45,535 bases of DNA from a virus: the IMG/VR virus record IMGVR_UViG_3300045005_000110; one strand, 5' to 3'. Shown here piece by piece: positions 13,877 to 16,549 of this stretch; the stretch's first letter is position 1, and every line of letters begins with the position of its first letter. The notes under the pieces were generated by a model. The model ran no database searches and was not told where the DNA came from. It saw nothing but the letters and a program-made list of their open reading frames with translations. The position numbers and the translations under genes were made by a program.

Positions 13877-15427
13877 ATGATGAAAAAGTTCACTTTGTTC
13901 CGCGAAGAACGAGACGCCAAGACCCCCATCTCGTCCAAAATCAAACTGCAAAAGCAAGAAGGCTCTGCGGAGTTTTCTCCTTTCCGCGTCGATAAGGCTA
14001 CCCGCCCGAACCTCCGCACACTGATCCAAGCCTTCAAGGGCAGCGGTCAGGTCGGCCTCGGCTACACCACCATCGACAAGTCGAAGGGCGAACACGAACC
14101 GCTGATGAAGGCCAAGAACTTGTGGCTCACCGGCGGCGCGGTTCGCGACCACCTCAAGGGCAAAACCCCGAAGGGCTACGACCTCGTTACGGACGCCACT
14201 CCTTCCGAAGTCCGCATGATTCTCTCCAACTCGGAACAACCGTTTACTGAGGTCAAGCCGAAAGACGGCGAGATGGGTCAGGACGAGCGGTACGCCGATC
14301 TGCCGAGCGGCAACAAGCGTCGGTGCTTCTACGCCAGCCGTTGGGACGGACAGGGCAAAGAGATCGAGATCACCGTCGAGATAAACGGCGAGAAGTTCGA
14401 GCTTGCGTCCCTCGGCAAGCACGGCAAAAGTCGCCGGGTGAACCCGGACAAAGCCGACGTTGCGACCAGCGTCGAAGAAGACAGCATGGGTCGCGACTTC
14501 ACGATGAACGCCATGTATATCCCATTGAGTCAAAGTGACGGCGAGAACAGCGAATTGATTGATCCGCATGGTGGCGCACACCACCTGAAGGCGGGCGAGG
14601 TCAAGTTTATCAACAGTCCTATGGACAAGATGCGTGACGACCCGATGACGGCATTCCGTTACCTCAATCAAACTGGCAAGTTCGGAAAGTTTTCGGGAAT
14701 CGGCGACAAGGAAAAAGCGGCGATTGGGCAGTTCAAAGACATGGCCGACGTTGACCCGTCCGAGATCCGCAAATCGTTCCTCAGCGGCCTCGAAGATCCC
14801 GACATGGACGCCAGAGGGTACATGGGCGCGGCTAAGGGTCTGGGCCTTCTGAACGTCGTGTTCCCTGATCTCGAATTCCGCGAAGACGACATGCCGCCGG
14901 ACTTCCGTGGCGACCGCTGGTTGGCACCGGCTTGGGTTCTCAGGGACAACGACCCCGAAAAGGTCAAGAAGGTACTGGGCGGCGGCGGCTGGAGCAAACA
15001 AGAAGCATCGGACATCGCCTATCTGGTCAAGATCGCATCTTGGGCTGAAAAGGATGGGTTCAGTCCCGACAAGCTCAAGGACGTTAAGGGCCACACCGGG
15101 CTGACCAAGAGCAAGATCCGCGAATGGCTCCAAATGATCAACAAGGGTCAGGGCGGCGAAGCGGAAGGTCTGTTCAAGGACGGCGAGGACGAAAACGATA
15201 TGGGCGGCGAGGAAGGTCCGCAGGAGAAAAGAATGGGAGCGGCCAAGTCGCTCACCAGACCGTCTTCTGACGAAGGGGATGCAGAGGAGAAACCGGAAAA
15301 GAAGGATGACGGCGGCGAGAAAAAGGAGTCGATGTCTTGGGGCCGTATGATGGAACGCATCAAGAACCGCCCGGCCCAACAGGAGCGTCCGACCGAGTCG
15401 GCTGGTTGGGTTCCACTCATCCGCTGA
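13877..15427 (+). CDS. tRNA nucleotidyltransferase (CCA-adding) / poly(A) polymerase family protein with a long acidic/K-rich C-terminal tail (516 aa)
   Basis: 'LWLTGGAVRDHLKGKTPKGYDLVTDATPSEV' matches the class-II head motif 'YLVGGAVRDxLLGxPxKDxDxxTxAxPEE'. 'RDFTMNAM' matches 'RDFTINAL'. The last ~120 aa are low-complexity (GGEAEGLFKDGEDENDMGGEEGPQEK…). Confidence 0.75.
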   Translation: MMKKFTLFREERDAKTPISSKIKLQKQEGSAEFSPFRVDKATRPNLRTLIQAFKGSGQVGLGYTTIDKSKGEHEPLMKAKNLWLTGGAVRDHLKGKTPKGYDLVTDATPSEVRMILSNSEQPFTEVKPKDGEMGQDERYADLPSGNKRRCFYASRWDGQGKEIEITVEINGEKFELASLGKHGKSRRVNPDKADVATSVEEDSMGRDFTMNAMYIPLSQSDGENSELIDPHGGAHHLKAGEVKFINSPMDKMRDDPMTAFRYLNQTGKFGKFSGIGDKEKAAIGQFKDMADVDPSEIRKSFLSGLEDPDMDARGYMGAAKGLGLLNVVFPDLEFREDDMPPDFRGDRWLAPAWVLRDNDPEKVKKVLGGGGWSKQEASDIAYLVKIASWAEKDGFSPDKLKDVKGHTGLTKSKIREWLQMINKGQGGEAEGLFKDGEDENDMGGEEGPQEKRMGAAKSLTRPSSDEGDAEEKPEKKDDGGEKKESMSWGRMMERIKNRPAQQERPTESAGWVPLIR

Positions 15428-15443
15428 TCGGTTTACAAACAGC

Positions 15444-15479
15444 GAAGCCCTCCCTATAACAAGGGAGGGCTTCTTTTTG
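15444..15479 (+). terminator. Rho-independent terminator
   Basis: gaagccctccct-ataaca-agggagggcttc followed by TTTTTG. Confidence 0.65.
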
Positions 15480-15495
15480 CGCCGAGGGTAATGTC

Positions 15496-15837
15496 GTGCT
15501 GGAATACAGCGTCCAAGCCACGCCGTTCATCATCCGCGATCTGGGGTGGAAGTTCATCAAGGAACTTGCGGCTCAGGCGTACCCTCTTTTCGAGGACGGG
15601 CAGTTCCGCCGTTTGGTCTTCGGGTCGCAAGGCACACAGGTTCTCGACACCGTGGACCCCGATAAAATCAAAGTGATCTTTGCACAGATCGAAGATCGGG
15701 CGGTCATGATCGCGCCGTACCGCGACGAAGAAGGCATCAAGGTGCTTTACTTCAAATGGGTCGAAGAAACTCTCTACGATTCATTCTGCGTACCCGATGG
15801 GCAGAACCGAGTCTGGGACAACCGAGAGAAGCCGTGA
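15496..15837 (+). CDS. Hypothetical protein (113 aa, GTG start)
   Basis: ORF with normal composition; its stop overlaps the next start (GTGA). Confidence 0.5.
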   Translation: MLEYSVQATPFIIRDLGWKFIKELAAQAYPLFEDGQFRRLVFGSQGTQVLDTVDPDKIKVIFAQIEDRAVMIAPYRDEEGIKVLYFKWVEETLYDSFCVPDGQNRVWDNREKP

Positions 15838-16037
15838 CAGACCGCGTCGAAACCTACAAAGTTGAACACGGGTGGAACCACCCCTACCCGTGGATGTTCC
15901 GCGTCTGGCACAACGGCGTTTGCCATCAGTTCGCGGGCATGCCCAATCAGTGTTCTACACGCAGAGAAGCTGCCGCTCGCGGGGGCTGGCGGCTCAGATG
16001 GCTCAAAACCGGCAAGTTTCAGGAGAAGTACAAGTGA
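15834..16037 (+). CDS. Hypothetical small W/H-rich protein (~67 aa)
   Basis: GTGA overlap start; 'HGWNHPYPWMFRVWHNGVCHQF'. The track ORF 15756..16037 starts earlier, in the upstream gene. Confidence 0.4.
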   Translation: MTDRVETYKVEHGWNHPYPWMFRVWHNGVCHQFAGMPNQCSTRREAAARGGWRLRWLKTGKFQEKYK

Positions 16038-16549
16038 ATATCGACGTTTTCGATTTTGACGGGACACTCGTCAAGACGCCCGGACGCGAGCAAGCCGAGA
16101 AAGACTTCCTCGCGGCGACCGGGAACCCGTGGCCGCACATCGGTTTCTACGGCCGACTGGAATCTCTGATCCCTCCTGTCTTCCCAGAGAAGCCGGGTGA
16201 CGAGTTCTTGATTCAAGAAGTCGCCGAGATCTGCCGCGCCAAAGAATGCGATCTCCGCGTGCTGATGACGGGGCGACCGTACAAACTACGCAATCGCGTC
16301 CTCGAAATCTGCACCCACTACGGCCTCGCCTTCGGCCTGACCTATTTTCAGGGCCAGAAGGACTGCCCCGGAATCAACACTTTCGAGTGCAAAACTTCGG
16401 GGCTGCGACAACTCTTAACCCTTAATCCACAACGACTTAGGTTGTGGGAGGACCGGGAAGATCACTTCGTTCTGTTCGAGGAGTTGTTCAGGACGTTTCG
16501 CGCAGAGCGTCCAGAGGTGGAGTTCGTTCTGAACCGGGTGGTGTCGTAA
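16034..16549 (+). CDS. HAD-superfamily phosphatase (171 aa)
   Basis: Motif I 'DVFDFDGTLV' (DxDGT), motif II 'VLMTGRP', acidic motif 'LWEDREDH'. Start at GTG 16034 overlapping the previous stop. Confidence 0.6.
   Translation: MNIDVFDFDGTLVKTPGREQAEKDFLAATGNPWPHIGFYGRLESLIPPVFPEKPGDEFLIQEVAEICRAKECDLRVLMTGRPYKLRNRVLEICTHYGLAFGLTYFQGQKDCPGINTFECKTSGLRQLLTLNPQRLRLWEDREDHFVLFEELFRTFRAERPEVEFVLNRVVS

Follow-up and report, generated by a model that had tools for sequence, protein, structure and literature searches.

A 45,535-nucleotide stretch of viral DNA (IMG/VR virus record IMGVR_UViG_3300045005_000110; the whole stretch is called the window) encodes, on the + strand of the region studied here (positions 13877-16549), a class-II nucleotidyltransferase (NTase) homologue and a stand-alone HAD phosphatase. 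The two genes form a pair that recurs across one lineage of huge phages, and within this lineage the NTase of the window carries substitutions at catalytic and templating positions that are intact in its basal relatives. We give a probability of about one half to a composite reading of these data, namely that the phage inherited a module made of an NTase and a HAD of the 'Swiss Army Knife' RNA repair type (SAK-HAD), and that the NTase of the window no longer adds CCA accurately and would act as a binder or as an altered enzyme.

The NTase matches the Pfam family PF01743 PolyA_pol (72.8 bits, with the cut-off at 23; E=4.1e-20) and the tRNA nucleotidyltransferase family phrog_2244. Its closest solved relatives by sequence, as determined by a PDB search, are the poly(A) polymerase I of E. 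coli (PAP I) and bacterial and human CCA-adding enzymes. A structure model obtained with AlphaFold2 (AF2) from 35 homologues had a mean predicted local distance difference test score (pLDDT) of 79, with values above 90 across most of residues 40-400, and Foldseek aligned this model to class-II CCA enzymes and PAP I over ~370-430 columns (4x4w, 8cbm, 3aql, 6qy6 and 5hc9; E values from 1e-13 to 1e-10). Head, neck, body and tail of the class-II enzymes are all present in the model. Scores against the PcnB and CCA equivalog models of NCBIfam are far under the respective cut-offs: 70.7 versus 305.65 (TIGR01942), 51.2 versus 438.8 (TIGR02692) and 45.6 versus 290 (NF009814). The closest known class-II enzymes include E. 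coli PAP I (3aqk), the Planococcus CCA enzyme (6ibp), the T. maritima CCA enzyme (3h37/5hc9) and human TRNT1 (4x4w).

The protein carries added segments outside and within this fold. Its N-terminal extension is folded in the AF2 model (pLDDT 84-95 for residues 30-80), contains the residues K23, L24, F33, P35, N45, L46, G71, E72, E74 and P75 that are invariant in the family alignment, and gave 15 matches among 1.84 billion representative proteins, all of which are members or fragments of the NTase family. An insertion of ~25 residues follows motif A, ahead of the next core strand, the one of the third carboxylate. The C-terminal tail (25% D/E, 17% K/R, 14% G) is predicted to be disordered (pLDDT<50 at residues 436-488 and 498-516); its one short helix (488-496) aligns with a family segment 'LSTxRWxD', and length and sequence of the tail vary among the homologues. 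This E/D/K/G-rich tail had been put at ~120 amino acids in an initial annotation of the DNA, which did not mention the N-terminal extension, and measures ~92 amino acids (residues 425-516); judged by alignment and model, it appears as a variable disordered appendage and not as a conserved feature.

The motif A sequence GGAVRDHLKGKTPKGYDLVTDATP aligns in exact register with motif A of E. coli PAP I and of the Planococcus CCA enzyme 6ibp, by which the canonical DxD becomes G100-Y-D102 in the window NTase, at the place where PAP I has DFD and 6ibp has DVD. Motif B reads GRDFTMN (G205-R-D) versus the canonical RRD, and motif D reads DDPMT versus EDxxR, with T258 at the position of the templating Arg. 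The DxD position was tallied in those 118 of the 120 closest database homologues (46-88% identity) whose motif was readable: NYD was found in 99, GYD in 11, SYD, DYN and NYN in 2 each, NHN and GFD in 1 each, and DxD in none. Gly is found at residue 100 in at least three distinct branches, a recurrence which suggests that the constraint on a metal ligand no longer acts here.

Three catalytic carboxylates are described for class-II enzymes (D55, D57 and D99 in TmCCA; D31, D33 and E74 in AaL), in which recognition of the incoming base falls to an Asp/Arg pair of the neck (PMC3925840, PMC7947759). For the E. coli CCA enzyme it was shown that the D21A/D23A and D23A mutants are inactive, that selection from a randomised D23 gave Asp only, and that the EDxxA template mutant (R134A) cannot sustain growth when RNase T is expressed (PMC6468291). 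Because CC-adding enzymes tolerate QRD at motif B (PMC7947759), loss of the first Arg of RRD alone would, by analogy, not be disqualifying for CCA addition. The combined loss of the first metal-binding Asp, the leading Arg in motif B and the templating Arg suggests that the window NTase no longer performs accurate CCA addition; canonical accurate addition was probably lost, and binding of the nucleotide or of the tRNA 3' end probably kept. The initial annotation had called the protein a CCA-adding or poly(A) enzyme on the basis of GGAVRD and RDFTMNAM. Both motifs are found in the open reading frame (ORF) 13877-15427 (residues 86-91 and 206-213, respectively) and the class-II family and fold hold, but G100, G205 and T258 in place of catalytic and templating residues speak against the activity itself.

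Other positions in the pocket did not change. No variation was seen at GGAVRD, R206, D207, T209, N211, D229, G232, G233, D255 and P256 across the clade of the window, and the derived clade gained an invariant Glu, E164, indicating that the NTase pocket is probably still under selection. E164 as well as E72 and E74 of the N-terminal extension are candidates for compensating residues. D106 (within LVTDAT) was considered as a further compensating carboxylate and rejected, since canonical relatives and outgroups have D106 too.

The history of these substitutions was followed in the NTase family. A pattern scan of IMG/VR gave 67 loci, and together with the NCBI contig L002 a set of 57 loci was obtained that represent full-length family members including the N-terminal extension. 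Contigs carrying the family are up to 533 kb (IMG/VR) and 670 kb (protein database) long. Among the GenBank phage records, the family is present only in the uncultured huge phage LR756511 (595 kb), which also gave the sole match, of 110 nucleotides, when the window region was compared with GenBank phages by nucleotide search; cultured phages encode ordinary tRNA nucleotidyltransferases only, with 25-28% identity over head and neck.

Family members were ordered by a quick neighbor-joining tree rooted on canonical outgroups, of which the polarity is provisional. Their motifs form a graded series that appears to lead from canonical basal NTases to a derived clade with progressive motif loss. The basal syntenic members (L034, L039, L040, L043, L049, L050, L051 and LR756511) retain DYD or DID, FE[IVL]ATFRK, RRD and ED(Q/E/L)LR, and look like working tRNA nucleotidyltransferases. 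A small intermediate group exhibits N-[IV]-E or DIQ together with G/S-RD and has kept EDPxR. In the derived clade, which comprises 35 loci including the window, the DxD site is N/G/S-Y-D (several NYN or DYN), motif B is N/G/S-RD, the column of the third carboxylate is variable and motif D mostly reads EDPxT. The templating Arg, which basal relatives and outgroups possess, is missing from 35/35 loci and replaced by Thr in 24, the window among them. Both DxD positions vary across the family. The contrast in motifs between syntenic relatives can be read from the alignment independently of the tree. The window NTase belongs to a derived clade that has probably lost accurate CCA addition.

The HAD protein matches PF10307 HAD_SAK_1, the 'Swiss Army Knife' RNA repair HAD family, with 28.8 bits against a gathering score of 25.6, and a precomputed PF10307 match is found in 20 of its 21 database homologues. 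To the extent that it could be applied, the check set for the HAD in the initial annotation thus came out in favor of that annotation. The motifs DFDGT, TGR and ED reported in the initial annotation were confirmed: D7, D9, T11, T79 (G80, R81), K120 and D140 are invariant among the homologues and E139 is nearly invariant. An Asp at position D+2 of the HAD motif is typical of phosphatases. The protein was modeled with a pLDDT of 94. PDB searches with the single sequence and with a profile yielded nothing significant, Pnkp1 appearing only at E=0.8. On other jumbo-phage contigs, remote HAD_SAK_1 genes are found amid cREC, ATP-dependent ligase, PTH2 and Ro60, and others amid tRNA_bind, IF3 and an RNase II/R-like gene. 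Stand-alone SAK-HADs have been predicted to be linear 3'-phosphatases in jumbo-phage RNA repair (PMC7824862, Iyer et al. 2021), for which CCA-adding enzymes are the predicted end-restoring NTases (PMC7824862). A role of the HAD as polynucleotide phosphatase is therefore well motivated, but not proven.

The reading frame of the HAD gene had been taken from 15872. Its start is most likely the GTG at 16034, which gives 171 amino acids beginning with MNIDVFDFDGT; we prefer this start because the homologues share the N-terminus M-x-[IV]-x-V-F-D-F-D-G-T. The GTG is located 8 nucleotides past AGGAG and overlaps the stop codon of the preceding orf67 (GTGA).

The HAD gene was detected by hidden Markov models in 32/57 family loci, corresponding to 26 of 49 distinct NTase sequences. 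Of the remaining loci, two or three break off just past the NTase. It is mostly located 25-470 nucleotides downstream of the NTase stop codon on the same strand. Adjacency is seen at NTase identities from 28% to 79% as well as in LR756511, and the HAD accompanies canonical as well as degenerate NTases; one subclade (13 sequences) is without it. Canonical outgroup NTases had no HAD within 10 kb, and remote HAD_SAK_1 genes had no PF01743 neighbor within 8 kb according to precomputed Pfam listings. Since the pairing has no parallel in either of these two surroundings, NTase and HAD appear to constitute a lineage-specific module that was kept tight while its surroundings turned over. In this respect the proposed set of the two genes gained support, as the two have stayed neighbors over a deep phage lineage. 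Further genes recur in the same block: the SprT-like gene in 37/57 family loci, orf284 in 25/57 and p181, downstream of the SprT-like gene, in 13/57 plus LR756511 (tblastn). Three genes transcribed divergently upstream of the NTase (p163b, p491 and p163) are universal neighbors, being present in 57/57 loci, and genes beyond the block are common only to the window and its nearest relative L002.

From folds, motif states, gene boundaries, synteny and the phylogenetic pattern we infer an RNA substrate of the HAD, a repair pathway, a loss of NTase activity and a replacement function as follows. In the ancestral module, represented by the basal relatives and LR756511, the pair would most plausibly heal tRNA 3' ends. 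Once the HAD has taken off the 3'-phosphate that a metal-independent ribonuclease leaves on a tRNA or RNA end, the NTase would rebuild CCA. In the clade of the window, the HAD appears intact, and the NTase keeps the fold of a tRNA enzyme and, with GGAVRD, RDFTxN, DPxGG and DDP, a large part of the pocket for the nucleotide and the 3' end; it would more likely persist as a protein that binds tRNA 3' ends or as an enzyme whose chemistry is altered, and CCA rebuilding, if any, would fall to the host enzyme. A narrower version, which we put forward tentatively as a possibility, is that the degenerate NTase, conserved with its own N-terminal domain in a large huge-phage clade, acts without nucleotide transfer as a tRNA 3'-end binder, and might either shield or sequester acceptor ends from host end-targeting defenses or present damaged 3'-phosphate ends to the SAK-HAD. 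The repair of tRNA 3' ends that had been proposed initially is thus supported by the family of the HAD and by the linkage, but not by the catalytic side of the window NTase nor by kinase or ligase partners.

Several observations weigh against the composite reading, the first group of which concerns the NTase. D102 and E175, i.e. two of the three carboxylates, are retained; the assignment of E175 to the third carboxylate (D99 in TmCCA, E74 in AaL, the E of 'EVTTFR') is tentative and comes from the sequence alignment to 6ibp, and E175 is found within FELASL, in a column that is variable in the window's clade and where the FRK context is lost. The invariant GGAVRD, RDFTxN, DPxGG and D255 fit continued nucleotide binding and possibly catalysis, E164 might compensate for the lost carboxylate, and the pseudoenzyme call, which was made from sequence alone, can be wrong. 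An alternative, which we regard as doubtful, would build on these points: the NTase would be active in CCA addition or as a poly(A) polymerase, and with the help of a HAD 3'-phosphatase it would repair tRNA 3' ends cut by host nucleases, or else tail RNAs. It would agree with the full class-II fold, with the invariant triphosphate, ribose and base-Asp motifs, with the retained carboxylates and the gained E164, with strong purifying selection (46-88% identity among the 120 homologues) and with the conserved pairing of the NTase with a PNKP-like HAD. However, G100 replaces the metal-ligand Asp, close homologues have N, G or S there and several have N in place of D102 as well, and the templating Arg is absent throughout the derived loci. 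Mutations of DxD and EDxxR in E. coli lead to inactivity or to failure in vivo (PMC6468291), and the NCBIfam scores far under the equivalog cut-offs likewise speak against an active enzyme.

The second group concerns the pair. About 40% of the family loci are without HAD, the pairing is found in one lineage only and may partly reflect descent rather than function, and no kinase, ligase or tRNA gene accompanies it; within the window, NTase and HAD are set apart by a strong terminator plus two inserted ORFs. Foldseek gave no match at E<=1e-3 for the HAD model and placed the Legionella protein phosphatase Lem4 at rank 1, Pnkp1 at rank 2 and T4 Pnkp at rank 10, the last with the best TM-score (0.58). 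With this weak result the polynucleotide specificity of the HAD is not established, and of the likeness to PNKP that had been claimed, membership in the RNA repair family PF10307 stands, but a significant PDB match was not obtained and Lem4 precedes Pnkp1. NTase and HAD might be neighbors by descent only, with the HAD acting as phosphatase on small molecules or proteins and with an unrelated role for the NTase homologue. Besides the loci without HAD, the restriction to one lineage, the terminator with the inserted ORFs and the Foldseek result, the complete lack of the HAD in one whole subclade, the outgroup NTases without HAD within 10 kb and the remote HAD_SAK_1 genes without PF01743 within 8 kb would agree with this explanation. 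We consider it unlikely, since a same-strand spacing of 25-100 nucleotides persists down to ~28-30% NTase identity while the surrounding genes change, and since the HAD belongs to an RNA-repair HAD family with remote members in RNA and translation neighborhoods. Very improbable, finally, is a recruitment of the NTase homologue to a function of p163b, p491 and p163, maybe in the virion or in morphogenesis, with loss of its relation to tRNA: the three divergent genes show the only 57/57 linkage, conservation of p491 exceeds that of the NTase (mean column identity of 70%) and p163 has a weak match to the small terminase subunit, but Pfam matches are missing for all three and PDB matches for p491, the model keeps the tRNA-binding body and tail domains of class-II enzymes, and genes that are adjacent and divergent where a module ends give only weak evidence on function.

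The layout of the locus is summarized in Table 1. The ATG of the NTase sits 9 nucleotides past AGGAG. The terminator that had been noted after the NTase was confirmed as a perfect 12-bp hairpin followed by a T5 run; the surrounding 63 nucleotides fold at -31.6 kcal/mol (z=-5.4 versus shuffles). Downstream of it, orf113 had no Pfam, PHROG or NCBIfam match and orf67 was likewise without family match. The genes orf113, orf67 and HAD are chained by GTGA stop/start overlaps, one joining orf113 to orf67 and one joining orf67 to HAD, and the two small ORFs are accordingly predicted to be translationally coupled to the HAD. The terminator and two novel small ORFs appear to have been inserted between NTase and HAD in the subclade of the window, and the two genes are probably no longer on one transcript there, unless the terminator is read through.

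Table 1. Coordinates of the NTase-HAD locus and of neighboring features in the window.
Feature	Position	Strand	Description
p163b	10650..11141	-	divergent upstream neighbor of NTase
p491	11395..12870	-	divergent upstream neighbor of NTase
p163	12863..13354	-	divergent upstream neighbor of NTase
NTase homologue	13877..15427	+	516 aa; class-II tRNA-nucleotidyltransferase/PAP homologue; head-neck-body-tail fold (model); degenerate catalytic motifs
NTase N-terminal extension	13877..14131	+	residues 1-85; specific to the family (alignment, AF2, database search)
NTase motif A	14132..14182	+	GGAVRD, residues 86-91, then GYD, residues 100-102, at the canonical DxD site
NTase motif B	14489..14518	+	GRDFTMNAMY, residues 205-214; Gly for first Arg of canonical RRD
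NTase motif D region	14636..14662	+	DDPMTAFRY, residues 254-262; Thr258 at templating Arg of EDxxR
NTase C-terminal tail	15149..15427	+	residues 425-516; predicted disordered, E/D/K/G-rich
Intrinsic-terminator-like hairpin	15444..15478 (stem-loop 15444-15473)	+	perfect 12 bp, 8 GC, loop 6, then TTTTT
orf113	15496..15837	+	113 aa; only in the window's nearest relatives L001 and L002
orf67	15834..16037	+	67 aa; only in the window and L001 (3.3-kb contig, near-identical gene products)
HAD phosphatase	16034..16549	+	171 aa; stand-alone, HAD_SAK_1 family; D7-F-D9-G-T11, T79 (G80, R81), K120, E139-D140
SprT-like gene	16559..16864	+	101 aa; zinc-metalloprotease-like, HEFAH; PF10263 E=1.4e-4, below cut-off
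orf284	16878..17732	+	284 aa; recurrent in the block
p181	18343..18888	+	weak histidine-phosphatase-superfamily match, motif RHADAE; PF00300 E=2e-3 (below cut-off); weak NCBIfam matches
231-aa ORF	31359..32054	+	very acidic N-terminus; no P-loop in the sequence

Further repair parts were sought in the window. Pfam searches with ~45 of its ORFs revealed no RNA ligase, polynucleotide kinase, 2H, RtcB or Thg1 domain, and the combination of 5'-polynucleotide kinase and RNA ligase that makes up a complete heal-and-seal system was not found in the window, to which the search was confined. The window contained no tRNA genes and no Rfam families, and a single tRNA gene was detected across 40 related loci, on the basis of which a linkage of the pair to tRNA gene clusters was rejected. 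A kinase-like repair partner had been suggested at 31359. The ORF at this position had no P-loop and no match in Pfam, PHROG or NCBIfam, and its motifs (GTFALVYKH...LIKL, DDFGDNIHD and IDLG) recall a protein-kinase-like fold; it has no support as a polynucleotide kinase and was rejected as a member of the repair set.

Between the divergent genes and the NTase, p148 (13409-13855, +) encodes a coiled-coil-like protein with a C-terminal hydrophobic anchor that was detectable in 25/57 loci. The three divergent genes p163b (tested against Pfam only), p491 and p163 had no Pfam match. The 70% mean column identity of p491, which is above that of the NTase, refers to its C-terminal 365 amino acids, preceded by a variable Pro/Gly/Ala/Asp-rich region; p491 had no PHROG match and, in sequence and profile searches, no PDB match below E=0.3. 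A role of p491 as capsid protein was dropped as an unsupported guess, the Pfam, PHROGs and PDB searches all being empty. The one PHROG match of p163, to the small terminase subunit, is weak (E=0.0047). Directly after the HAD follows the SprT-like gene with its HEFAH motif, and a second putative zinc metalloprotease, SprT-like/M90-like, is encoded at 35393-36172 (-). p181 represents a second putative phosphatase in the block. It is followed by a gene at 18970-20076 (+), common only to L002 and the window, for a 368-amino-acid protein with a signal-peptide-like N-terminus, 'P(x)FSGGS' Ser/Gly/Pro-rich repeats and a C-terminal hydrophobic segment, for which no family match was found.

At a larger distance, a run of conflict-type domains extends over 22284-27214 (+): an HNH-like PHROG match (22284-23474, E=4e-5) comes first, the N-terminal domain of GmrSD (23471-24001, E=3.4e-12) second and an AAA ATPase (26027-27214, E=8e-12) third, and L002 (586 kb) has the latter two as well. 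An ADP-ribosylglycohydrolase (39307-40437, -; PF03747, E=1.9e-73) may be a counter-defense or regulatory enzyme. The gene at 7217-9256 (+) encodes a protein of 679 amino acids in which the shoulder domain of the major vault protein (PF11978, E=6.7e-21) is accompanied by a weak Vault_3 repeat, and is likewise found in L002; an ORF of 798 amino acids on the opposite strand (7187-9583) had no matches and is probably a shadow ORF.

The consequences depend on whether the derived NTases are active. If they are inactive, the family would offer a natural series with a working CCA-adding enzyme at one end and a tRNA-binding pseudoenzyme at the other, useful for studying roles of CCA enzymes beyond catalysis and effects of huge phages on host tRNA pools, and in the case of a binder it would provide a viral pseudoenzyme that arose from an enzyme essential for tRNA maturation. 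If they are active, class-II transfer would be possible without the first Asp of DxD and without an Arg template, which bears on mechanism and annotation. Either way, the labels 'tRNA nucleotidyltransferase/poly(A) polymerase' that are automatically assigned to the derived genes overstate what is known about them.

Both parts of the module belong to kinds already predicted for jumbo-phage RNA repair, and the general idea is not new. New are the conserved adjacency of an NTase and a SAK-HAD in one huge-phage lineage and, as judged from the alignments, the progressive loss of catalytic and templating residues of the NTase within this lineage while the protein stayed strongly conserved. The window NTase shares with bacterial class-II CCA enzymes and PAP I the head-neck-body-tail fold, GGxVRD, RD-F-T-x-N, the DPxGG motif C region and the motif D Asp. 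It differs from them in GYD for DxD, GRD for RRD and DDPMT for EDxxR, in the N-terminal domain of 85 amino acids, the insertion of ~25 amino acids and the disordered acidic tail of 92 amino acids, and in overall sequence, with only ~16-20% identity. Closer relatives are the canonical huge-phage NTases (LR756511.1, 580.7-582.0 kb; L034, L039, L040, L043 and L050) with 42-46% identity to the window NTase. These have the N-terminal extension, the divergent p491 and p163 and, downstream, HAD, SprT-like gene and p181 in common with the window (L043 is without HAD), but unlike the window NTase they have kept DYD, FEIATFRK, RRD and EDQLR.

With the phosphatase domains of PNKPs (T4 Pnkp, 1ltq/5uj0; Capnocytophaga Pnkp1, 4xrp) the window HAD shares DxDxT, the motif II Thr, the motif III Lys and the motif IV acidic pair, and with the jumbo-phage SAK-HADs (PF10307; PMC7824862) its membership in HAD_SAK_1 and its stand-alone state. 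Unlike the PNKPs, with which it is 16-18% identical, it has no fused kinase domain and adjoins an NTase homologue, not an RNA ligase. The predicted logic would be the same as in T4 Pnkp with Rnl1, bacterial Pnkp/Hen1 and Pnkp1-Rnl-Hen1, i.e. a damaged RNA 3' end is cleaned before its function is restored. In contrast to these systems, no 5'-kinase, ligase or methyltransferase was found among the window ORFs, and the target would be different: whereas T4-type systems heal and seal a break in the anticodon loop, the module described here would have healed and extended the acceptor 3' end.

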